A DNA stretch of 64,000 nt, from assembly GCF_036588685.1 (NCBI RefSeq), contig NC_086379.1:84258001-84322000 (forward strand), written 5' to 3'. Positions 5,075 to 54,100 of the stretch are shown here, one piece after another; the stretch's first letter is position 1, and each line of letters starts with the position of its first letter. A program made the position numbers and the translations under genes. The notes under the pieces were generated by a model. The model saw nothing but the letters and a program-made list of their open reading frames with translations. It did no database searches and was not told where the DNA came from. Source of the stretch: Mytilus trossulus. Its lineage: Eukaryota.

Positions 5075-5183
5075 TATACGAAATGTGATTGAAATACCAG
5101 AAAGTGTAGATATAAGGTATCAGACATTGGAGTGATAGCAGTGTGAGTGAAAGTTATTTTGAAGTTTGTATTCTAAACCGGAA

Positions 5184-6284
5184 ATGGCGAGCAAAACGGA
5201 TAATCAAACACTAAATGAAACCAATGTTGGTATGTTTTACATTTTGATTGGAACCGCTATAACTCCATTGTGTTCTGCAATGTTAAACATAATGTGTATG
5301 GTTGTATTGTTTAGATCACATACCCTGCGAAATAGTAGATTTCATTTCCTTACCTTATGTTTAAGTATAGGAGATTTCCTTACAATGATACTTACATTTA
5401 TATTACTTGTCAACTCGTCGTTAGAAGAATTAAGGTTACATGTGAAATACTTGTGTCGTATATTATCGTTGTTGGTCTATTGCTCTATACTGTTTTCATT
5501 ATGTCAGACGTTGTTAATTTGTGTAGAAAGATATTTAGCGACGTCAGCGACAAACAAGATAAGAAGAAATGTTTTAGCACAGAAGAAATATATATTTCTC
5601 ATGTTCGTTCTATGTGTTATATATACAAATGTATTGTTTGGATTAAGCGGCTTCAGTTTGCAATCTGGATGTATAGGGAATGAGTACAACTATCTATACA
5701 TGATCTTCTCTGAAGTTCCTTTAATATTACTTTTTATTGTGATAACTATTATTTACATAACCACTGCTGTAAGAATTAAACAAATAATAACTCGAGTGTC
5801 GTTTATCAACAACGATATATCCTCTCTACAATTAAGCAGAAGAATTATTCGCCTAAAAATGAATCTGCTCACCCTGGGACTAGTTCTGTTGATTTTGGCT
5901 ATATCTGTTGTACCAAGGGTGACTGTGACCTTATTAGGACAATCATCAAGTGGTAACATTGGAAATATCACATTAGTCATACCGCCAATATTTAATCCGA
6001 TTATATATTGCATACGTTTTGTCGAAGTACGAAATATGCTGAAACCCAACTGCATATGGCGCCATGCAAATATTAGATCGCCTAGAAACAACATGTCTAT
6101 GGTTCAGGAATCTTATAATACTCCAGTGGAAGCAGGAACTAGCAGCAAAAGAAACAGTTACAATACGAAAAGGCCTATCCACGAAAATGTGTTCAATATG
6201 GAGTGCACAAAAATTACGGTGATTAGTTTAATTGATAATGGTATTGAAGAAAATGATATTCTTCCACAGAACCAATACGAGTAA
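5184..6284 (+). CDS. Intronless class A (rhodopsin-like) orphan GPCR, 366 aa
   Basis: Seven hydrophobic segments; N-terminal N-glycosylation sequons NQT/NET; TM1 LN, TM2 LSIGD, TM3 Cys and ERY (DRY-like), ECL2 Cys, TM6 SVVP, TM7 NPIIY (NPxxY). The ORF track starts at TTG 5166; the first ATG is at 5184. Confidence 0.93.
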   Translation: MASKTDNQTLNETNVGMFYILIGTAITPLCSAMLNIMCMVVLFRSHTLRNSRFHFLTLCLSIGDFLTMILTFILLVNSSLEELRLHVKYLCRILSLLVYCSILFSLCQTLLICVERYLATSATNKIRRNVLAQKKYIFLMFVLCVIYTNVLFGLSGFSLQSGCIGNEYNYLYMIFSEVPLILLFIVITIIYITTAVRIKQIITRVSFINNDISSLQLSRRIIRLKMNLLTLGLVLLILAISVVPRVTVTLLGQSSSGNIGNITLVIPPIFNPIIYCIRFVEVRNMLKPNCIWRHANIRSPRNNMSMVQESYNTPVEAGTSSKRNSYNTKRPIHENVFNMECTKITVISLIDNGIEENDILPQNQYE

Positions 6285-39000: not shown

Positions 39001-40903
39001 ACTCTGACACATTCCCCACTTCCATTCTCAATTTTATATATTATGTACTGTGTTACAACACTAGATAATAAAGGGCTGCGCTTTAGCGCATGATACGCCC
39101 GTTGCTCTTTTAACTTGTCTTTTATGCTTTAAATATGATCAACTAGAAATAGTGTGAGCCCTGTCAAAAATACCCCCCCCCCCCCCAAAAAAAAAAATAA
39201 TAAATAAAAATGCACAAAAAATTGGCACTATTAAGGTCAATAGATATAAACAATTTATCAAAGTTGCATAAAATCTTGTGAAAGTGTTAGTTACAATGTA
39301 TTGTCCCAAAATTTGAAAATCCCCCCTTTTTTAGCATAAAAATTCATAACATGGAAATGTAAAATCTGAAATTTATAAAAATTAAAAGGGAGCTTACATC
39401 AATAGATATAAACAATTCAACAAAGTTTCATGGACATTGGTGAAAGCCTTTTTGAGTTATTGTCCGAAGTGTTGAAAATCCCCCCTTTTTTATGAATAAA
39501 GCTCCATAAATCCAAAACTTAAAATCTGAAATTAAAAAAAAATGAAAGGGAGCTTACGTCAATAGATATAAACAATTCACTTAAGTTTCATGGAAATTGG
39601 TGTAAGTGTTTTTGAGTTATTGTCCGAAGTGTGGACGACAGACAGACGGACAACGGTATACCATAATACGGCCCGTCTAAAAGAAGACGGGCGTATAAAA
39701 ACTGGTACCTTGAAGTTGACTGACTGAATAACACTTGAAATTCTAATATTAGCATGTACAATGTATAAGTGACTTTTAAAGATTGATTAGTCAGCAACCA
39801 TTTGATTTTCTGGGGGGGGGGGGGGCTATGGGTTTTTTTTTCTGGACAAATTTTTTTCTCGCCTGCAGCGAAAAACAATCTATTTTTTTCGTGACAAGTC
39901 AAAAACAATTTTTTCCTTTTAATTTATAGCATTACATATAGTGGCAGCTGAGGGTGAAACAAACAATTTTTTTTTATCAGAATCAAAAACAAATTATTTT
40001 TTTCTCCCAAAACTGAAAAACAAACTTTTTTTTTACAAAAAAAAACATGCCCCCCCCCCCCCCCGAAAAATCAAATGGTTGCTGCCTTATAGAAAAATAT
40101 GAAATTATAAAGGTTTTTATAACTTAAAAATGATATATAAAAAGCAGGCAATCTCATAAAGATTGTTATACATAAAGTGTGTACATCCAACATGGCGACC
40201 AAGAATAACGCAAATATACCATGTAACATCATGAACATGGTCACCAATAATTGGATGTACACACTTATTGACACTATATTTAAAACGATCTTTGTAAATT
40301 TACCTGCTTGCTGTAAATCATGTTTTTAAGTTTTTAATACACTAATAATATAATATTATTTAATAAACAATGTTTAAAAGTTCCAATATGTGTAAATATT
40401 AAGTGTAATTCGATCATTACAAGTATTTTTTCGGATAATAACAGTGTTATTCTCTCATTCCTGTTACCAGTAACCCGATAAAAATTGATGAGAAAAGATT
40501 AACATTTTAGATTATTCCGGGAAAAACACCATACAAACTTTTGAGATATTAATGATATTGATTATAGATTCTATATGGTTATGTCGCTACGACTTGTATA
40601 TTTGTTGGCCATATAAATATTAAATTACTATCTGAACTTTCAACGGTAAATAAAACAAAGTGATTTAGACGCACAAATTCATTAAATTATTGTCAATTTT
40701 GAATTCTTAACAATCATTCATGCCAATATTTTGATTTGTTCTATGTGACACTTGACTCACTCCTGTTGTAATATGACTTCTTTCTCCGATGGTTCTGGAG
40801 TTCTTGGCTTTTCTAGTCCTTCTCCTGCACCGTCATCTTTGTCTCCTTTACCTCCCTTCTTTCCTTTCTTTCCCTTTCCCTTTTTTCCTTTCTTGGGTGG
40901 CAT
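32738..40903 (-). CDS. CCDC166: Coiled-coil domain-containing protein 166-like (DUF4515 family), 6 exons, 308 aa
   Basis: Exons 40903-40761, 38540-38487, 38006-37952, 37449-37225, 36658-36482, 33010-32738; all GT-AG, total 927 nt in frame. MPPKKGKK N-terminus; LQEYKDLQDEQLSKIKSLEAE...FLKDK...HTNRIKTENRQLRKELL resembles vertebrate CCDC166 (recalled, not searched). Confidence 0.85.
33557..33699. mobile_element. Short MITE with degenerate CAGGGGCAGATCCAG / CTGGATCAGCAGCTG termini
   Basis: Imperfect terminal inverted repeats and an internal TTCCAACC repeat. Confidence 0.5.
36268..36466 (+). mobile_element. Repeat family C copy in CCDC166 intron 5
   Basis: Reverse complement of about 1670-1867 and 38840-39036. 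Confidence 0.8.
36482..36658 (-). CDS. CCDC166: CCDC166-like exon 5
   Basis: Weak acceptor TAAAG, DLQDEQ...LANK, donor GTAATT. Confidence 0.8.
37225..37449 (-). CDS. CCDC166: CCDC166-like exon 4
   Basis: Acceptor TTGTAG, HEYMSYM...LQEYK, donor GTAACA. Confidence 0.85.
37952..38006 (-). CDS. CCDC166: CCDC166-like exon 3
   Basis: Acceptor TGTCAG, RKEHEWLQQEANRVKMES, donor GTAAGT. Confidence 0.8.
38487..38540 (-). CDS. CCDC166: CCDC166-like exon 2
   Basis: Acceptor TTTCAG, LEKVTNELETNRARVQE, donor GTATCT, phase 2-2. Confidence 0.8.
38730..39036 (-). mobile_element. Repeat family C copy in CCDC166 intron 1
   Basis: Matches 1590-1867. Confidence 0.8.
39060..39701 (+). mobile_element. Pearl/HINE (Helentron-associated)-like non-autonomous element with tandem-repeat core
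   Basis: Subterminal inverted ATACGCCCG (39093) / CGGGCGTAT (39688); about 160-bp internal repeats (CAATAGATATAAACAATT three times); GACA/GACG microsatellite; 3' hairpin CCCGTCT...AGACGGG. Confidence 0.7.
39788..40089. mobile_element. MITE with TIRs CAGCAACCATTTGATTTT / AAAATCAAATGGTTGCTG and poly-G/poly-C subterminal tracts
   Basis: Inverted termini read directly. Confidence 0.85.
40761..40903 (-). CDS. CCDC166: CCDC166-like exon 1
   Basis: ATG at 40903, MPPKKGKKGKGKKGKKGGKGDKDD...ILQQ, donor GTGAGT. Confidence 0.85.
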
Positions 40904-41178
40904 GATTTATATATTTTTTAAACTTTATCAAATGGCGTCACTGGTGACTACGGTAACAAAGAACTAGGTAAAATAACTATTTCGCGTCCGGGTTTTGGTG
41001 ATTATTATCCTTCATGAATTGTCTTTAAATGGTTTTAAAACATTATAAATCTTTAAAAAAATGCAATAAATTTATTTTAGATTTGGTTATTTTGGAAATG
41101 TTTACGTTATTTGAGTTGGAAATGTATACGAATTATAATAACGGGATTAAAATACTTATTTTTTAATTCGGAACAAAT
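40904..41178. promoter_or_regulatory. Bidirectional promoter and 5' UTRs shared by CCDC166 and LSM11
   Basis: 275 bp between divergent ATGs; YY1-like AAATGGCG (40930-40937) and X-box-like GTGACTACGGTAAC (40944-40957). Confidence 0.7.
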
Positions 41179-41554
41179 ATGTCTGCGCCCATGGAAAATA
41201 TTGCGGGAGAATTGAAAGTAGAAATATCTGAAAATATTCCTGAAGAATTAGATTTGACATCCCCAAATTTGAATCCTCTGAAAGCTCTTTACTCCGAAAA
41301 TGTATATTTGCCACACAAAAACCCAACAACGTTCAATAATCTGGCAGAATATGAAAATGTTGTTATCAAAGGAAATGTCACATCTAATAGAGGGAGGGGG
41401 AGAGGGAAAAAAGTCCCAAAAGCCACCAGAACAACTACCATAAAGCCACCTGCTGTAACAGAAGGTGTTAACACACAAGAATCCGATGAAAATACTGCTA
41501 AGATGTTAGCACGTAGAAAAAAAATGAATCGCAATGTACTGACAAGAATGTCGG
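41179..41554 (+). CDS. LSM11: LSM11 exon 1
   Basis: ATG at 41179, donor G|GTAAGA, phase 1. Confidence 0.92.
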
Positions 41555-44500
41555 GTAAGATCATTTGAAATAAGGAACTGGCTACGGTTACATGGAAATG
41601 TAGCAATAATAAAAATATTATTGTTACATGAATTTGTGCGTCTAAATCACTTTGTTTTATAATTTTTAATAATAAAATAATAAAAGCTGAAGACATTTAT
41701 TTTATTTTTGGAGCATGTTTAAGTCTGACACATTTTTTATGAAACCATCCCAAGGAGTCATCACACACCAGTGATGCCACATTGTGAATGTATCAGATAC
41801 TGTACAATTCCATTCTGCGATATTCCGCTTTTAGAAGATAAGGCAACCTATAATGTTTGCCATGGTTGCCATTGTCTATTACACTACTACCATTAACTAG
41901 TCTAACAAGCATCACTACAAATTAAATTATTAATACACATAGTGGGTAATACACAATTTCCAAGGTTGATCCGTTGTAGATAAATTTCTATCAAACTACA
42001 ACTTGGAAAAACATTTTGGTCAAATTGTATTGTGAAGGACAAAGCCCCTATTAAATGAGCACTGTCAATGAAAATATACTGTCATTGACTGTCATAATAT
42101 TATCAAATTGTTTTACAGAAATTGATGAAGGTCCCCTCACTATTCTAAAGAAAGCTGTGGAAAAACAACACAGAATTAAAGTTTGGACCAGAAGTGCTGT
42201 CACATGGAGGGGCTACTGCAAAGCTTATCTTATAGCTTTTGATAAACATTTTAACCTGGTAAGTCAAACTGTTCTGAAGCAGGGTGAAACTTTTGTATAA
42301 GACACCTCATAGCTTTTGATAAACATTTTAGTTGTGCTGAAATCAGATAAAAATAAACGGTTTTGTTTTTAGAATTTTATAAATAGGAATACAAGTGTAA
42401 TTTTAAAATGCCAATTGCTACCAATTCAGCCTTTGAAAAATAAAGATACTGTTTTAAAATATTTTTTTCAACTTTGAATTCAGGGGGAAAGGGGGGAGGG
42501 CATCCTTCATTTAAAGAACAAACTTGATACCCTTTTTCTTTATGTATTTTGACTAATATTCTGCACTCTTTATGTATTATTCATTCTTTTGAAAACACCA
42601 TTCAGACCCCTTCCAAATGATATTTAATCTATTTTATCAACTGACAAAATTAAAAAATTAAACCAGTTTACATATCATGTATTTGCAGGCATTGATGGAT
42701 GTTGATGAAACATATCGTATTCCCAAAGTGATCAGAAAACCTCTTCTGGAGACGGTAAGTATTCCTTTAATCTCCTCCTACATTCATGACATTACAAAAC
42801 TCAGCCTTAAGTATTTCTAGTCATCTATTCACATGAATGAGAGAACCTCTTCTGAAGACAGACCTAAAGTATTCCATTAATCTCCTCTTATATTACAAAA
42901 CTCAGCCTTAAGTATTTCTAGTCATCTATTCACATGAATGAGAGAACCTCTTCTGAAGACAGACCTAAAGTATTTCATTAATCTCCTCTTACATTACAAA
43001 ACTCAGTTTAGATTATTCCTAGTCTTAAGAAAACCTGTAGGAGATGATGAAAATTCCTTACAATTAAAAAACAAAAGAATTTTATATTGAAGTCACCTCT
43101 TCATTGTTGAAGGCCGTACAGTGACCGATAGTTGTTACTTTCTGTGACATTTGGTCTCTTGTGGAGATTTGTCTTATTGGCAATCACACAACATCTTCTT
43201 TTTTTAGATCTCAAGGTTGCACTTTGTCATGTTTGTTAATACATATAAAAAAGAAGATGTGGTATGATTGCCAATGAGACAACTATCCACTAAAGACCAA
43301 AATGTCACAAACATTAACAACTATAGGTCACCGTACGGCCTTCAACAATGAGCAAAGCCCATACCGCATAGTCAGCTAAAAAAGGCCCCGATAAAACAAT
43401 GTAAAACAATTCAAACGAGAAAACTAACGGCCTTATCTATGTAAAAAAATGAACGAAAAACAAATATATAACACATAAACAAACGACAGTTGTTTCACAA
43501 AGCACGCCTCTTTTGGAGCCATAATATTCAGACATTTTGTTTTGTTTACCTACTGGTTTTCAGGTATAATTTCTATGTTGCATCTTATAAAAGATCCTTG
43601 ATGAATATTGTTGTTGGTGTGTTTTTGTCTTGTGAAACATGTCCACCTCATTAAATGACTGCAGCAATCCCTTAAGTGTTCATAACAGCTTCATTAGTTT
43701 ATTATTGATTTCAGATTAAAGCCAAAATTTTTACCATCATGGTAGTAGGATGCTATCTGAAATTATTGTGAAAGATTATGTAATTTGGATATATATACAT
43801 TTAAGTACTGTATAGCAGGTGTGTTTATAGTATGAGTGTAAAATTTTGCGATTTTTATTGAATAAGGTATACAAAATATTTTGGTGGTTATTATTTTCGT
43901 GAATATTATTTGGAGATTTTTTTCTACCTGCAAAAATAAGCGAAAATTTATAACCACGAAAATAAATCTAGTCTACAGTATGTTATTTAAAATCAAATGT
44001 AAATTGAGTCAAATCAGTAAATATGCATTTGATATCTTATGCCCCTTCAACAATAATAATATTAAAACCAGAAAGACATCTTATACATGCAGGTCACCCT
44101 ACAATCTTTAAATTTGTAATTATTTTCAGAAATCAAAAGAAACAGAAAGGGATATTGCTATGCAAGGACTATCCAAGACAAGTAGTGATGAAAAGTTGAC
44201 ACAGGTACAATCTGAAAAAACATCAATACAACAATCAGAGAAGGAAGGAGGTGGTGAGGCATTAACAGGTGAGATCGAAGAAGGTCTTCAAGCATTAACA
44301 CATGAACAATCAGAGATGGCAGAAGGTTATAAAGCATTAACAAAGGAACAATGTCACATGACATTGAGTGAGAGATTAACAGACTGTACAGACAGTGAAG
44401 ATACAGATAGTGGTGTGGTGAGAATGACGGAAAATCTGTCTATCAATCAAACGTCAGCTATAACCCATTCAGACAAATATAGAGAGATTGCGTCAGAAGA

Positions 44501-44738
44501 CATTCACCAAGAGCAGACTTCTAGAACTAGTGAAATTTCTTCAATAGAACCAACTAATACTCAACAAATCTCAGAAAGTAGCTCTAAAGTGAAAACTACC
44601 TCGAGTGCTTCTAAATATGCCATGTGTTCACAAGAGAAAGATTATACAACAGAAATTGAGTACATAACCAAACATAGACATATTAATCAGCTGTTCGTCA
44701 GGGGAGATAATGTTGTGTCTGTTGCATTGTTAGATTAA
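41179..44738 (+). CDS. LSM11: U7 snRNA-associated Sm-like protein LSm11, 4 exons, 396 aa
   Basis: Exons 41179-41554, 42119-42258, 42689-42754, 44130-44738; total 1191 nt in frame. LDLTSPNLNPLKALY...FNNLAEYE N-terminal box, RNVLTRM, Sm1 CKAYLIAFDKHFNLALMDVDETY, Sm2 RHINQLFVRGDNVVSV. Confidence 0.95.
42119..42258 (+). CDS. LSM11: LSM11 exon 2
   Basis: Acceptor TTACAG, IDEGPL...FDKHFNL, donor GTAAGT. Confidence 0.92.
42689..42754 (+). CDS. LSM11: LSM11 exon 3
   Basis: Acceptor TTGCAG, ALMDVDETYRIPKVIRKPLLET, donor GTAAGT. Confidence 0.9.
42735..43025. repeat. Degenerate tandem repeat of about 101 bp (x2.8) starting in LSM11 exon 3
   Basis: AACCTCTTCTG(G/A)AGAC at 42738, 42844 and 42945; ATTACAAAACTCAG three times. 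Confidence 0.85.
43100..43488. mobile_element. Two family B copies in inverted orientation (43100-43205 minus; 43245-43488 plus)
   Basis: CATCTTCTTTTTTT ... AAAAAAGAAGATG about 40 nt apart. Confidence 0.8.
44130..44738 (+). CDS. LSM11: LSM11 exon 4 (terminal)
   Basis: Acceptor TTTCAG, acidic linker followed by the Sm2 motif, stop TAA. Confidence 0.9.
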   Translation, partial: KSKETERDIAMQGLSKTSSDEKLTQVQSEKTSIQQSEKEGGGEALTGEIEEGLQALTHEQSEMAEGYKALTKEQCHMTLSERLTDCTDSEDTDSGVVRMTENLSINQTSAITHSDKYREIASEDIHQEQTSRTSEISSIEPTNTQQISESSSKVKTTSSASKYAMCSQEKDYTTEIEYITKHRHINQLFVRGDNVVSVALLD

Positions 44739-46458
44739 AGTATCAGTCAGGGGAGATAATGTTGTGTCTGTTGCATTGTTAGATTAAAGTATCAGTCGGG
44801 GGAGATAATGTTGTGTCTGTTGCATTGTTAGATTAAAGTATCAGTCAGGGGAGATAATGTTGTGTCTGTTGCATTGTTAGATTAAAGTATCAGTCGGGGG
44901 AGATAATGTTGTGTCTGTTGCATTGTTAGATTAAAGTATCAGTCGGGGGAGATAATGTTGTGTCTGTTGCATTGTTAGATTAAAGTATCAGTCGGGGGAG
45001 ATAATGTTGTGTCTGTTGCATTGTTAGATTAAAGTATCAGTCGGGGGAGATAATGTTGTGTCTGTTGCATTGTTAGATTAAAGTATCAGTCAGGGGAGAT
45101 AATGTTGTGTCTGTTGCATTGTTAGATTAAAGTATCAGTCGGGGGAGATAATGTTGTGTCTGTTGCATTGTTAGATTAAAGTATCAGTCGGGGGAGATAA
45201 TGTTGTGTCTGTTGCATTGTTAGATTAAAGTATCAGTCGGGGGAGATAATGTTGTGTCTGTTGCATTGTTAGATTAAAGTATCAGTCGGGGGAGATAATG
45301 TTGTGTCTGTTGCATTGTTAGATTAAAGTATCAGTCGGGGGAGATAATGTTGTGTCTGTTGCATTGTTAGATTAAAGTATCAGTCGGGGGAGATAATGTT
45401 GTGTCTGTTGCATTGTTAGATTAAAGTATCAGTCGGGGGAGATAATGTTGTGTCTGTTGCATTGTTAGATTAAAGTATCAGTCGGGGGAGATAATGTTGT
45501 GTCTGTTGCATTGTTAGATTAAAGTATCAGTCAGGGGAGATAATGTTGTGTCTGTTGCATTGTTAGATTAAAGTATCAGTCAGGGGAGATAATGTTGTGT
45601 CTGTTGCATTGTTAGATTAAAGTATCAGTCGGGGGAGATAATGTTGTGTCTGTTGCATTGTTAGATTAAAGTATCAGTCGGGGGAGATAATGTTGTGTCT
45701 GTTGCATTGTTAGATTAAAGTATCAGTCGGGGGAGATAATGTTGTGTCTGTTGCATTGTTAGATTAAAGTATCAGTCGGGGGAGATAATGTTGTGTCTGT
45801 TGCATTGTTAGATTAAAGTATCAGTCGGGGGAGATAATGTTGTGTCTGTTGCATTGTTAGATTAAAGTATCAGTCAGGGGAGATAATGTTGTGTCTGTTG
45901 CATTGTTAGATTAAAGTATCAGTCAGGGGAGATAATGTTGTGTCTGTTGCATTGTTAGATTAAAGTATCAGTCGGGGGAGATAATGTTGTGTCTGTTGCA
46001 TTGTTAGATTAAAGTATCAGTCGGGGGAGATAATGTTGTGTCTGTTGCATTGTTAGATTAAAGTATCAGTCAGGGGAGATAATGTTGTGTCTGTTGCATT
46101 GTTAGATTAAAGTATCAGTCAGGGGAGATAATGTTGTGTCTGTTGCATTGTTAGATTAAAGTATCAGTCAGGGGAGATAATGTTGTGTCTGTTGCATTGT
46201 TAGATTAAAGTATCAGTCGGGGGAGATAATGTTGTGTCTGTTGCATTGTTAGATTAAAGTATCAGTCAGGGGAGATAATGTTGTGTCTGTTGCATTGTTA
46301 GATTAAAGTATCAGTCGGGGGAGATAATGTTGTGTCTGTTGCATTGTTAGATTAAAGTATCAGTCGGGGGAGATAATGTTGTGTCTGTTGCATTGTTAGA
46401 TTAAAGTATCAGTCAGGGGAGATAATGTTGTGTCTGTTGCATTGTTAGATTAAAGTAT
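44697..46458 (+). repeat. Minisatellite, 49-bp unit GTC(A/G)GGGGAGATAATGTTGTGTCTGTTGCATTGTTAGATTAAAGTATCA x36; first unit is the end of the LSM11 CDS
   Basis: Period 49 from 44697 to the last unit at 46412; one dimorphic A/G position. Confidence 0.98.
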
Positions 46459-47714
46459 AATTTTATGAGAGTTCTGTTTCATGTTTAGTTAAAAACACCT
46501 CCATTGTGAATTAAACTAAACTAAAACAAACCAGGTTCTCTCATGGCCAAGAGCCACACTTCCTGTCTGGTAAAATTGTAAACACTCAAATATCAACCTG
46601 ATCTCCTTTAGAAATGGTTTCCAAGTTATTGCTCGGAAACAACATTTAATAATAATAATAATAATAATTGCGTTTATACATCAGCCATCTTTTTATCAAT
46701 ATTCTCCCTGTCATGTTAACCATATTGAAACTTTTTCATGCCCCACCTAGGGGTATTGCTTTCCAGTCTCTGCATTTGTATTAGTTAAGGTTAAAGTTTT
46801 TGGTCATGGTAAATGAAGTTATGGATGAAGTTGAAGTCCAATCAACTTGAAACCTTAGTACAAATATTCCCTATGATAGGATCTTTCTAATGTTTATGCC
46901 AAATTACAGTTTTGACCCTAATTTTACAGGCCTTTGAACATAGAAAATGATAGAGCAAGTGGAGCATACAAAAATGACATATTCTTGTTTCTTAAAAATA
47001 TCTAACATATTTTACCTTAATTTAATGCTGTTCTTTAAAGGACCATAATTCCAGTATGGCTAAAGTAATAATCATCAATATTTATCCATTTGGTCATGAT
47101 TGGCCACTGTACCATTCCAAATTCATAACTGGATTTCTGATTGAAAATCCAAATTAATAAACCAAAATTACAATTTTTGGTACCTGTGAATACCCTTTAT
47201 AGTTGCTTTGTATCTTTTGTGTAGCTATTTCAACAGATTTTAAAGGGAAATTTAGCTTAGTTTTCTTGTTTGAATTGTTTTACATTTGTCATTTCAGGGC
47301 CTTTTATCATGTTTATAGCGGACTGCAGTATGGGCTTGTTAATTTCTGTGTCATTTGGTCGAATTGTCTCATTGGCAATAATACCGCATCTTCTTTTTTA
47401 TAACCACTTGTCAAATTCATGTTCACCTATTTAACTCAAATCTTTATATTTGATTTATAGCATATTAAAACATATATCCAAATTACAATAAGTCTAAAAT
47501 ACAGTTTTGAACAAAACATGTACTAGATAATTTATTTCAGAACTGCAAGTGTATTTCAGTGTAGAGAGTAAGACGTCATCTAATTAACTATCCAGATGAC
47601 CTCCAAATACTACCCACTGTCACATAACCCATTATAAGCATACATAAATAGAAATAGATTGTGACCATGTGTAATTGGGTTTTATAGGTCTGTTCAATTT
47701 TATGTTAAAGCTTA

Positions 47715-48795
47715 AACAAGAGTGCACACACTGAAATGTCTTGCCTTCTTTACTAACCATTGATATTTTGTTATAAGTCTTAAATATAAAGCTATACTTA
47801 AACTATCACATAAACTTAACATGATCCAAGAAAATGCAGTCTAGGTCATATAAACCGAATTAGAAATACATGTATACCTTACAATCATTCAATACACTAA
47901 GTATGTATATAGTTGACCTATTGCTTATAGTTTCTAAGACTTCACAAAGAAAAGCAAACACTGACCAATTATTGCTATGAGCCATGAAAATTAGGTCAAA
48001 TTCAGATGAAACATGCCAGGCAGACATGTGCGGAACAGCTTACAATCCTTCCATGCAACAAATATAGTTGACCTATTGCTTAGCATTTAAGAAAAACAGA
48101 CCAAAACACAAAACTAAACACTGACTCAGTGAGCAATAAAACCTAAGAAACTGACATATACATCATAAAATATTTCCATACACAAAATATAGTAGGCCTA
48201 CCGGTAATCCATCTTGTACTAGAAAAAAAAAATCTAAAAAAAATTGACTTTGACAACCGAACCATGAAAATGAGGTCTAGGTCAGATGACACCTGCCAGT
48301 TGGACATGTACAACTTGCAATCATTCTAAACTCCAAATATAGTAGACCTATTGCATACAGTATACGAAAATCACACCAAAACTTGACTATAACCATAAAA
48401 ATGAAGTCAAGGGCAGATGACATCTGCAAGTTGGACATCCCTTACATTCTTTCCATACACCAAATATACTAGACCTATTGCTTATAGTATCTGAGATATG
48501 GACTTCATCACCAAACCTTAACCTTGTTAACTGATCAATTAAATGAGATAGAGGTCAAGTGAAACCTGTCCAACAGTCCTGATGACCTCACAAGGTACAC
48601 ACATACCAAATATAGTTATCCTATTACTCTTTAAGTTGTTTTGTAGTAACCAAACCATGAAATTGAGGTCAAGGACAATGGTCTTCAAACTTGTGACAGA
48701 CAGAAACTTCGTAACATAAGGCATCTATTAAGTTAGCTAATGTTGCCGCCCCTGGATCACTATCCCTATGTCGAGCTTTGTGTGACAAAAGTCCT
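47715..48795 (+). mobile_element. HINE/MITE-like element with degenerate tandem core (ATAGTTGACCTATTGC, CATGAAAATGAGGTC repeats)
   Basis: Starts AACAAGAGTG; several degenerate internal repeats of roughly 120-190 bp. Confidence 0.55.
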
Positions 48796-49399
48796 CGAAA
48801 CAACAAAGTTAATTATTCTTTTACCTGTATAGAAATGATTTATTGTGGATCTGATCTGTCAACAAAATGGTTAAGCTTTGTTTCACTTTAAATGTTGATA
48901 TCTTTCATTTCTTTTAGTGGCTGAACATGACTAATGCATGCATAACCAATCTCTATCAGGTTTTAATTGAAAGTCGTATGAAAATGGATTCAATGAGATA
49001 TTTCTCTGCTTATTTTGACAAATTGTCTGCTAAAAACAATTCATTATTTCACTTTTAATAATGATTGAACCAAACGAAATTATATATATTTTTTTTTCAT
49101 ATTTTGTAGCTAGTGCCCCTTTCAGAGTTCTAGTAGTTCTTATATTGTGCTTTTGCACCACTGTCCCATGTAAAGGGAGAGTTAAGGGCTCACAAATATG
49201 TTTGACCTTGCCACATTATCTTTGTCACAAGGCACAAGTCTGTAATTCAGTAGTTATAAATGGTTGCTGTGTTTTATTTATTTAGGTTTTTCAGGTTTGA
49301 ATTATTTAATCTATTATTTTGGAATCCTTGTTTATTATGTTTATATATTATTGAGGTGAATTAGCCTTTGGAAATACATTAGCAGCAAATTGTTTGTTA

Positions 49400-49690
49400 A
49401 TACTTTAACCCAACGGCATTTTTGCACCCATCTCAACATGCTAAAGTCAGGAGCCTCTAACTTTGTAGGTATTTTAACTGTAGTTCATTTATATGTTTTG
49501 GAGTTAATTATAACGTCCATTTTCTCTAAACAAGTACACATTTTTGTTTAGGGGCTAATTTAAGTCGCCTCCCTGTGCAGGATATTGTTGCTGTGTTGAA
49601 GACCCATAGGCGCCCTTCGACTGTTTTCTTGCTCTTTTGTTTCGTTGTTGTCTCTTTGACACATTCCCCATTTCCATTCTCAATTTTATT
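49400..49690 (-). mobile_element. Repeat family C copy (diverged) just 3' of NAF1
   Basis: GACACATTCCCCATTTCCATTCTCAATTTTATT terminus. Confidence 0.7.
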
Positions 49691-49760
49691 ATTATTTATC
49701 TAAGCAACAGACATTGAGTATAAAATTTTATTCACAATGTACTGAAGAATTCATTTGACA

Positions 49761-51178
49761 TCAATAAGGTTGGTTATTAAACTGTGGTCCTCCACCAAAA
49801 CTTGGTTGATTATTTTGAAAGGGTGTTGGATGTCTGCCTTTGTTGTATTCTATATTCTGTATGTAACGATTGTCAACGACAGATCTACTGGGGTTCTGTC
49901 CAGTCTGTCCCTGGCTAACACTATTATTACACATAATATTCTCTGTATTTCTATTGATCATTGTCTGATTGTTATCGTAAGATGTTGGAGCAGGTCCTTG
50001 TGAAAAATTACTATTCTGATAGGGAATATAAGAACCAGAATTTTGATCATTTTGAACACCGTAATTAGAGTTATTTCTTGGTGTAGGTGCTTGCCAGCTT
50101 GTATTGTCAGAATCTGAAGTTCTGGTTGGAGCCTGCCAACTAGTATTGTTAGGATTTGAAGACTTTGGTGCCTGCCAATTTGTATTGTTAGGATTTGAAG
50201 GCCTTCCTGGTGCCTGCCAATTTGTATTATTAGGATTTGAAGACCATTCAGGTGCTTGCCACATATTATTATCAGAACTTGAAGGCCCTGATGGTGCCTG
50301 CCAATTTGAATTGTCCGAACCTGAAGGTCTTGAAGGTGCTTGCCAATTTGTATTTGCAGAACTTGAAAATCTTGAAGGTTCCTGCCAACTTGTATTGTCA
50401 GAACCTGACGACCTTGAAGGTGCTTGCCAGTTTGTATTGTCAGAAGACCTTGAAGGTGCTTGCCAGTTTGTATTGTCAGAAGACCTTGAAGGTGCTTGCC
50501 AGTTTGAATCACCTGAATCACTACAACCCGCAGGTGCTTGCCAATTACCACCAGGTTGATGATTTGTGACAGGTTGTTGCCATTTATCACTTGTCTGCTG
50601 GTTTGAAACTGATTGTTGCCAATTATCAGTAGATTGATTATTGGTGGCAAGCTGTTGCCAATTACTATTATCTGTTTGAAAAGGTGCATTATTTTGTTTA
50701 GTATGATTGTGTCCTTGCCATGCTTGCTCAGATGCATTACTATTAGAGTTCTGCTTGAAAGTAATATTACTCTTTGAGGCTCCAAATGGTTGGCAGTTAC
50801 TGGTCTTTTGAAGAGCATTTGTATTACTCCATTGGTTAGATCCAAAACTGAAGTTTGGCGGAGGTTTACTAAGATCTTGATTAAACATCATCTGCCCCGA
50901 ATTGTTTCCCTGTGGTGGCTGGAAATCATAGGCATTATTACGAGGAGGCTGATTAAAAGGTCCAGAGTTTCCACTGAAAGTTTGTCCTCCTTGATTGACA
51001 TTACTTGGCCCATTACTGGCATTGAATCGAGGCCTGTTTCCTTGATGTTGTGGTTGATGAGGAAACCTTGGGTTGTTATGGTTTGGAGGACCTCTTGGTT
51101 GAAATTTATTATGCTGTCCACCAAATGGAGCAAACTTTCTTGGACCTTGATGTCTTTGAGCACCAGGATTGAAATTAC
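49761..51178 (-). CDS. NAF1: NAF1 terminal exon, N/Q/S/P/G-rich with WQAP repeats
   Basis: Acceptor TTTTAG, open for 472 codons to TGA; AATAAA (minus) at 49727-49732. Confidence 0.8.
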
Positions 51179-54100
51179 CTAAAATTTGAAAGAAGACGCA
51201 TTTAGTTTTTCTATTTCTATATACAGGTATATAAGCTTTATCTATATTTTGCTTTCTGTAAAGTTTTGACGAAATAGATTGATTATCTTCTTAAAAAAAC
51301 AACATAAACAATACATCAAAATTTTGATTCATTTTACCAAAGAGGACTCTATGGATTCAATTCATTTACTTTTGTGGTAAAAATGTATTTACTGCTGAAG
51401 ACAATTGTACAATGAATAATAATTAAGAAATACATCATGGGGGCTTGAATATATCATGATTATACCACAGGTTATCACTTCATGGTAAATATTTTACCCT
51501 GAGCGATAGCGAGGGGTAAAATATCAGCATAAAGGGACAACCAGTGGTAGAATCACAATATTTTCATTTTAATTTGTGTTGAACACAATACACATACTTT
51601 TCATACTTTTTATAATAGAAGTTATTTCACTCAAAATGTGTTAAAACGGCAAAATATCACTTTTAAATCATGCTTTGAGTGGGGAAAAGCCAAGTTTGTC
51701 TGGCATAGATCCTGTCCTTAATTGACAAATGAAAGTAATTTGTTTAAAAAGTGTGTAATATCGGAATCAAATCGGTTACTGGCAAATGAACTATTGCAAA
51801 AAGGCAGTTTATTACATAATCCTTAAACAAACAAAATTCAGCTGTTGTCTTTTGTTGCTGTATAACATATTTGTTTTTCGATCATTACTTTATACGTAAG
51901 TTTTCTAGTTTGAATTGTTTTACATTTGTCGTTGCGAGGCTTTTCATAGCTGATTATACTGTATAGGTTTTTCTGATTGTTGAAGAGTGTACATTGACCT
52001 ATAGTGGTTGACTTCTATGTCATTTGGTATCTGGTTGAGAGTTGTCCCGAAGACTTTAAACAGATTTGACCTCATTCTCGTGTCTGATTATTTAGAAACT
52101 GGTTGAACTGCACCACACATTGTGGTATCAATCAGGGATATCAGTGTATCAAACCAGTATTATTGTTTATGCAAAAAATGGATGAAAATTAATTTCTGCT
52201 AACTATAACAATATATAAGAAAGAGAGGAGGTATGAAGAAAGCTGCTAAAATCTGTAGATTAGTATGATGCTGACTATTTATCATGGATTATCTCCCCCT
52301 ATAATACAAGCAGACACATTTGTATAAACATTTACCAATCTGCCCTGAATTAATACTTACTGTTTACATGGATTACCTCCCCTTACAAAACTACAAGACA
52401 CATGCATTGTATTTAAGAATTGAATGCTTCTTTTTGTAACTTCATTGGGGTGTAAAAGTGTTGACCTAAGTACATTTTGTATGAAGCGCAGAAGCGCTTC
52501 ATTCTAAAAATGTGTGCAGTCAACACTTTTACAACCCTATGAAGTTACAAAAAGAAGCATTCAATACATTGTTTAGCTAGGATCATGAAAACACGAATTT
52601 TATAAATTTTTTATTTAATTCACCTGTGCACTTTATTGTGGGACCTCGTGTTATCATGAATGATAAGTTTTATTGTGTAATGCAATTGCTTAAGGAATAA
52701 CATGTGATGTGCAGTTAGCCAATCAGAATAACGTATTATAATTAAACATACATCTAATGTAATTATTAACATTTTATGCATATCTGCCCTAGGTAAATAC
52801 TTACTGTTTCCAGTTTGCTGTGGTTCATTGGTAACTTCATTTGACCTAGAGATAGAAATACATTTACTCATTTAACATAACAAAACAAAAACATGCCTGA
52901 TAAGAACAACATATGCATTTAAATCTCTGACACTTTTTGATATCAATGAATTGACAAAACTGTGAAAATCATTTATATACGAGTGATTTATAGTTGACAG
53001 TCAAACAGCTAATTAAGAATGTGCAAAAGATTAAAAAGTGAGACAAAAGTGAAATAAGAGGGAAAGAGAAATTATGTAGATTGAAACAATAACTGTACAG
53101 CAGCTTTTTTTCCAACAATATAAATTTACGTTTTGGGCATTAACAAATAGTGTCTCAATTATAAAAAGAAATCACAATCAGAACCACTGTTTATATATGA
53201 TATATAATCTGTGAATTTGCTGTGGTTATAATGAATATTTTAATGTGTTCACTTTCTGGAATAATTAGATTCTGTCATACCAAAGAGACCTGTGTATTTC
53301 TGTTCTATGTATGGCAAGATTAATGTTTAAATCAGAAGCCTTGGTATCAAAAGGTCATCAATAACCTCCAAAATTTATCATGGAAAAGTTAATCTACTAT
53401 ACTTAAGATACATTTTTGACTTTACTGTACTTACTGTCTAAACTTTTTCTTCCTGCTATTTTTAGCACCAGGAAGTTGATCAACATCAGCATTTTCTTGT
53501 TGCTTTTTATTTCTATGCTTGGCTTTAGCTCGTTTTTCTTCCTCATCATCTGAGAACTCTACAAACTGAAATATAAGAAGTTCATTAAATCAGGATGATC
53601 ATTTTTTGTAAGATTTTTTTTTTAAATTTTCATGTGTCTTTTATAGGTTACTTTATTGTGCTCATAGCTCATTGTTGAAGGCCTTATAGTGCCCTGTTTA
53701 CACCCTTTGGTTTGTTGTGGGTTGTCTCATTAGAAATCAAACCACATCTCCTAAGACTCCTTTAAAATCCTTTTTTAAAGGTGTAATACCACCAAATCAT
53801 GGTACCTCACATCCGGTTGTAAATAGGTCGACAAAAATATTCCTTGAATTTGACAGTTGTAGGTAATTAATCCTACATTTTATTGCAGTAAAACATTTCT
53901 GGGTCATAAACATATATCTTGGGTATTCCAAAGCACCATTATTTTTTTGTTTTGTGTTTCTATAGGATATTTTGGAAAGTTGAGGTTACATGGTTACTAA
54001 ATCTTGTACACAGGTTAAATAAGGGAAGAAATTTGATTGGTTAACTTCCAATGATGGTTATTTTCTAATATGCAATGAAATATTATGTGAATTTTTTCTA

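Follow-up and report, generated by a model that had tools for sequence, protein, structure and literature searches.

The last exon of LSM11 in Mytilus trossulus runs into a copy-number-variable minisatellite whose units each repeat the stop codon along with a putative poly(A) signal, and we lean toward the view that the mRNA is cut within the first few units, leaving 3′ ends that form a short ladder in 49-nt steps and dwindle along it. The array lies at 44697..46458 on the + strand of the window (the whole 64,000-nt stretch of DNA analyzed), where Tandem Repeats Finder reported 36 head-to-tail units with a period of 49, 36.0 copies, 99% matches and zero indels. With 49-bp units repeated 36 times at one locus, the array has the form of a minisatellite or VNTR (10–100 bp units, head-to-tail, one locus).

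The array begins inside the gene, as the original prediction had it: unit 1 (44697..44745, +) comprises the last 13 codons of LSM11, the stop codon TAA (44736–44738, +) and 7 nt, is in frame with the 396-aa gene and supplies its real C-terminus. A 24-nt core of the unit matched 36 times in the 64-kb window, every time within the array, while none of 100 shuffles had any match; no second locus with the array unit was found within the window, and a 24-nt pattern had 0 matches in metagenome contigs. Units differ at position 4, which is A in 13/36 and G in 23/36. The predicted unit peptide VRGDN thus holds for the 13 A-type units, unit 1 included, but not for the other 23, which would read VGGDN and give Gly for the invariant Sm2 residue Arg385 (e.g., 44700 versus 44798 and later units). 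The order of A- and G-type units was indistinguishable from random (15 runs versus 17.6 expected, P=0.23), and the last unit departs from the repeat pattern at 46459. The array as coding sequence was ruled out, with stops in all frames of both strands within the 147 nt translated, and the LSM11 protein is left unaltered.

The array likely arose when the end of LSM11 was duplicated in tandem and then amplified. Forty-seven of the 49 unit bases are gene-end sequence and at most two junction bases differ; the unit junction departs by 1 base from the continuation of the last unit and by 2 from the upstream flank. There is no foreign sequence between copies, which rules out a mobile-element insertion duplicating the gene end and points to plain tandem duplication and subsequent amplification. 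Rfam gave 0 hits in 40000–50000. Hairpin-driven amplification was also rejected, as DNA folding showed no hairpin. None of 33 LSM11-like or Sm-like loci carried an array of period ≥20 with at least 4 copies, a weak control because the loci are distant (none is from a mussel, and the C-terminal motif occurs in 5/33).

A second near-perfect array lies at 205–1370 (38 bp × 30.7), with a single base varying among its 30 full units. No gene or gene end was recognized there, so such amplification is not special to LSM11. The 38-bp unit contains an acceptor-like pyrimidine-CAG motif, and this array begins immediately behind sequence that resembles the terminus of a widespread interspersed repeat.

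The host gene is well supported as LSM11. A four-exon GT-AG model on the + strand comprises exon 1 (41179..41554, ATG at 41179), exon 2 (42119..42258, holding most of Sm motif 1), exon 3 (42689..42754) and a last exon whose coding part (44130..44738) encodes an acidic/Ser-rich long spacer and Sm motif 2. The 396-aa product has the same length as the NCBI-named M. trossulus LSm11, and its last exon is 100% identical to XP_063446466.1 (U7 snRNA-associated Sm-like protein LSm11, Mytilus trossulus, 396 aa). Its best solved-structure match is human Lsm11 (E 6e-25), the Pfam LSM match is above cut-off, and Sm1 and Sm2 motifs separated by a long spacer, behind an N-terminal extension like that of human Lsm11, are the features expected of LSM11. 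The predicted gene identity therefore stands. The name derives from similarity and the NCBI label, and U7 snRNA binding with Lsm10 is putative here. Nothing found ties the array to U7 function, and the histone-processing link drawn in the original prediction is unsupported. Arg385, encoded by array unit 1, is invariant in an alignment of 7 mussel proteins; the corresponding Arg in Sm proteins contacts RNA.

Other repeats and neighbors were noted around the gene. The LSM11 spacer has a 42-bp coding repeat in 2 copies (44271–44352), and the spacer repeat is longer by 28 residues in some M. edulis/M. galloprovincialis proteins (431 versus 403 aa). Intron 3 contains a 101-bp repeat (42755–43006, 2.2 copies) that by eye resembles the exon 3 end and donor region, possibly an older duplication across an exon boundary of LSM11. 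A coiled-coil gene at 40903 (−), with a weak DUF4515 match below cut-off, stands head to head with LSM11 (41179, +), their start codons ~275 bp apart, and the two genes probably share a promoter. Further along, a convergent gene (49761–51290, −) is a 509-codon low-complexity open frame with no Pfam match, within which 50085–50506 is a degenerate 42/36-bp coding repeat of NWQAP-type units. A single-exon rhodopsin-family GPCR frame (Pfam 7tm_1) lies at 5163–6284.

Public sequencing runs contain the array, and its copy number varies between two DNA runs, as estimated from depth alone. Contigs were placed on 46375–48300 for 4 of the 20 listed runs (X1, X2, X9 and X11), and array junction words were present in all four. 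X1 and X2 are DNA runs, X2 bearing another organism label and belonging to another study than X1; X1 may be the sample of the window itself and is then not independent of the assembly. In X1, a 79-nt G-type cycle contig had a depth of 786.7 versus 39.7–47.5 for the unique flank, equivalent, per haplotype, to 17–20 copies for an array of G-type units throughout or 21–25 at the G share of the window. X2, whose cycle is A-type, gave about 3–7 copies per haplotype, from three solved values that are partly discordant at low depth. Scaling 15 repeat-rich bins predicted the single-copy depth of X2 well (8.6–10.2 versus 8.4–9.7 observed), whereas its summed array depth was 58.6 versus the 170–217 expected for X1-like alleles, so that alleles differ between the two runs. 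In X1 as in X2, the exit contig begins at 46429, the point where a path leaving a tandem cycle has to branch off. The multi-copy array thus recurs in contigs from DNA runs, and the allelic variation foreseen for this VNTR is borne out (about 17–25 versus 3–7 copies per haplotype). X1 is also heterozygous at 46951–47084, where one contig equals the window and the other has 8 differences and 2 gaps.

The layout of each unit resembles a metazoan poly(A) site. ATTAAA, a candidate poly(A) hexamer, overlaps the stop codon at 44734..44739 (+) and recurs every 49 nt at unit positions 38–43; a GU-rich tract at 64–77, beginning 20 nt after the hexamer, is supplied by the next unit, so that the candidate downstream element of the first hexamer (44760..44773, +) is a copy of coding sequence in unit 2. 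In ten metazoans, according to PMC1539018, the hexamer peaks 19–23 nt upstream of the cut, with UG-rich elements 5–10 nt and U-rich elements 15–25 nt past it. PMC1574307 places AUUAAA at 16% of poly(A) sites in humans and 10% in flies, and the cut usually 5′ of an A. Counting 19 to 23 nt from the hexamer start, the first cleavage zone is predicted at 44753..44757 (+), in the purine-rich positions 8–12 of unit 2, with the GU tract 3–7 nt beyond. A variant hexamer, the spacing and a downstream UG/U-rich element are all in place, as predicted from the unit, by rules drawn from vertebrates, insects and nematodes and none from molluscs. Hexamers are common in the window: of 54-nt stretches sampled from the rest of it, 6% contain ATTAAA and 15% contain ATTAAA or AATAAA, so that the hexamer alone is weak evidence of a poly(A) site. 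No UGUA occurs in the 49-bp unit. Of the CA dinucleotides that had been proposed for each unit, the first (position 48) is present, but a second (position 52) requires an A-type unit to follow, as at 12/35 junctions; both were rejected as cut sites, being 4 and 8 nt past the hexamer and so nearer than the usual site.

Behind the last unit, the final hexamer (46449..46454, +) meets its own U/GU-rich unique flank (46459..46490, +) at the same distance. From this layout we infer that it preserves the context before duplication, that the flank was the original downstream element and that the original poly(A) site lay there, with an ancestral cleavage zone, by spacing, near 46468–46472 (+). The next ATTAAA outside the array (46510..46515, +) and the first AATAAA beyond it (47156) are possible fallback sites. 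Folding predictions suggest that RNA structure is a minor factor. The GU tract is predicted to be mostly paired (unpaired probability about 0.2), and the same holds for the unique flank past unit 36. For the first hexamer, the prediction is an open state (0.99) with at most 2 units transcribed and a more paired one (0.38–0.55) with more. Against a unit shuffled and then repeated, the fold gave modest z values of −2.2 (8/300) and −1.7 (15/300); hairpin values of −5.2 and −4.3 were set aside as inflated because the shuffle breaks up the repeat.

Contigs from two further runs give a weak hint that LSM11 mRNAs carry about 1–3 units. X9 and X11, from 2 studies, are RNA by guess only; their zero depth on the unique flank beside 12–17 on the gene end is RNA-like. 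Each has a 79-nt A-type contig in unit-start register without mismatch (depth 16.6 in X11 and 14.3 in X9), A-type like units 1–2, whereas the X1 DNA cycle is G-type. Bin means imply a second contig that fits only 46412–46441, with a depth of 12.3 (X11) and 13.3 (X9); this entering contig, presumably exon 4, is unlisted and its depth was obtained by subtraction, and the resulting contig set reproduces all four bin means. The ratio of cycle to entering contig is then 1.35 in X11 and 1.08 in X9. Depth is zero over 46442 to 46764 in both, where the DNA runs X1 and X2 continue, so these contigs give no sign of read-through to a single distal site, weakly in keeping with the original prediction of ends inside the array. 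Contigs show neither transcript ends nor levels, and no poly(A)-tailed loose end was found among the matches listed, a minority of all rows (the listing stops short of 34,314 pieces, 514 joints and 1,476 loose ends). The RNA-run contigs listed carry the Ala codon of the window at a residue that is Val in the proteins of M. edulis and M. galloprovincialis; runs were found with the window sequence, so that other alleles are unsampled.

Simulations narrow the transcripts that could produce this pattern. In a k=31 graph, transcripts ending in units 2–4 yield exactly the observed pieces, whereas different pieces result from one unit alone, from ends in unit 2 only, from transcripts running through all of 10 units and from the genomic haplotype. 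Simulated libraries (2×100 reads, 250±50 fragments, assumed free of 3′ bias) gave ratios of about 1.0–1.7 for a cleavage of 0.3–0.5 per unit, the matching value depending on haplotype and tail. For the window haplotype, a cleavage of 0.1 per unit gave ratios of 4–5 with a G share near 0.7, and read-through of all 36 units gave 20–30 with a G share of 0.65; a cleavage of 0.8 per unit gave 0.2–0.5. Background DNA could explain the X11 cycle (expected depth 16–20 versus 16.6 observed), whereas the 14.3 observed in X9 is 4–5× the median expectation of about 3 (maximum 13–17).

A short ladder is likely given the spacing, the k=31 graph and depth ratios matching a cleavage of 0.3–0.5 per unit. Building on the observed array, the identity of its gene and the copy-number difference, we infer each cleavage step as follows. 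ATTAAA on the stop codon would already have been the LSM11 poly(A) signal before duplication, with the U/GU-rich flank, now stranded past unit 36, as its downstream element. Duplication would then have given each internal hexamer a GU-rich downstream tract, copied from coding sequence, at a working distance. Each cassette may cut ~30–50% of arriving transcripts, or more if the libraries are 3′-biased, so that ~65–90% of messages would end within three units; a preference for proximal sites among tandem poly(A) signals is cited in PMC3884648 (to Denome and Cole 1988). Further copies would be largely invisible to the mRNA, and the array may therefore grow or drift cheaply, by slippage or unequal exchange, with long alleles behaving alike. 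On such alleles, copy number would barely alter the 3′ UTR, contrary to the predicted tracking of its length with the VNTR allele.

Alternatively, the internal cassettes may be mostly silent and transcripts may read through to the original site, so that the 3′ UTR has the length of the allele and the animals behind the RNA-like runs have 2–3 copies. We consider this unlikely. The contig pattern also fits it: simulated read-through of 2–3 copies ending at 46478 or 46535 gave ratios of 0.5–2.2, spanning the observed 1.08 and 1.35, and a two-copy allele gives 1.35 exactly when end effects are ignored. X2, with its few A-type copies like the RNA cycles, shows that short alleles exist, and the last hexamer has a suitable flank at the right distance. 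The simulated exit piece is 50–107 nt, and SPAdes-like graph cleaning clips short dead ends. X1 has no entry contig, so graph cleaning does distort the array graph. Logan contigs undergo SPAdes-like simplification with words seen once dropped, according to a preprint (10.1101/2024.07.30.605881), and the short exit piece could have been removed in this way. Against read-through, X11 bears the organism label of X1, which averages 17–25 copies; both RNA runs would have to combine alleles of very few copies with the loss of the exit piece to clipping; and the internal cassettes match published spacing.

It is rather improbable that the first cassette alone is used, which would give a single 3′ UTR of about 15–20 nt and leave the other 35 units out of mature RNA. 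The F7 VNTR offers a precedent for first-site choice (PMC1557585), the first hexamer is predicted to be most open before further units are added, and the closed cycle of X11 could be background DNA. Such ends, confined to unit 2 up to +15, would nevertheless leave the cycle unclosed, cleavage as strong as 0.8 per unit gives ratios well below those observed, and the X9 cycle stands above its median background estimate.

The notion of up to 35 working cassettes, created by a single duplication that made coding sequence serve as the downstream element, with ladder reach and mRNA level varying with allele length as an inherited control on a factor of histone processing, seems to us decidedly doubtful. 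A long ladder, in which most or even all 35 cassettes work at low efficiency, its extent follows copy number and LSM11 output is tuned, is very unlikely. The cassettes are alike except for one base, their spacing is correct and copy number varies, but weak cleavage of 0.1 per unit predicts far higher ratios and a largely G-type cycle where 1.08–1.35 and A-type were seen, and 0/33 of the distant LSM11-like or Sm-like loci carry arrays (none a mussel; C-terminal motif in 5). The predicted set of some 35 used cleavage sites is thus reduced to a short ladder at most, since the contig depths fit about 1–3 units per mRNA. An assembly artefact, suggested by nearly homogeneous units, by the 17–25 rather than 36 copies implied by X1 and by the possible shared origin of X1 and the window, is extremely unlikely and largely refuted already by the cycle depth of X1, the exit contigs in X1 and X2, the junction words in 4/4 runs and the aperiodic order of A and G units.

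If the short ladder is correct, one long-read library would show how probable cleavage is at each of a series of identical signals, spaced 49 nt apart within a native gene. The array would also distinguish scanning, in which the first site wins, from competition; in the literature found, choice among identical poly(A) signals was addressed only with constructs. It would also mean that tandem duplication can make a new poly(A) site out of coding sequence, while a long ladder would be a built-in ruler for per-site cleavage efficiency. The 23 G-type copies behind the coding copy are a potential source of mutational load, since gene conversion that carried their G into unit 1 would alter Sm2 Arg385. 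The array is also a highly variable marker; judged by the DNA alone, it is a minisatellite of a common sort at an uncommon location.

In the literature covered, which was largely outside subscription journals and supplements, no VNTR multiplying a stop codon and a poly(A) signal was found, and several systems share parts of this arrangement. The synthetic tandem signals of Denome and Cole were reportedly engineered viral signals in mammalian cells. Several stood in a row there and the proximal one was preferred, as relayed in PMC3884648 (Denome and Cole 1988), whereas the LSM11 array is natural, has 49-nt spacing and up to 36 copies, and carries a variant hexamer. The LSM11 array also resembles the polymorphic T-rich sequence in the ATP1B1 3′ UTR in being a length-variable 3′ element; that sequence shifts poly(A) choice (PMC3788127). 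It is a short downstream element, much like a homopolymer, that acts on one site and does not multiply it. The LSM11 units are 49 bp of gene end, whereas those of the D4Z4/DUX4 macrosatellite are kilobase-sized and each hold a whole gene. The DUX4 poly(A) signal lies outside the array, the reverse of the LSM11 case. Copy number and 3′ processing interact in D4Z4 (PMC2965761), which is its likeness to the LSM11 array.

The LSM11 array is a member of the VNTR class and a candidate locus of tandem alternative polyadenylation, and its closest known case is the 37-bp VNTR in intron 7 of F7, whose first unit spans an exon boundary and whose donors are identical, the first being chosen (PMC1557585). 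In both, the first unit spans a gene boundary and an RNA-processing signal, a putative one in LSM11, is multiplied into identical, potentially functional copies. The signal in F7 is a 5′ splice site within an intron that is removed, whereas the LSM11 units multiply a candidate poly(A) hexamer together with the stop codon, 36 times. Unlike in F7, the putatively used sites of the LSM11 array would owe their downstream element to something new, the coding sequence of the next unit.
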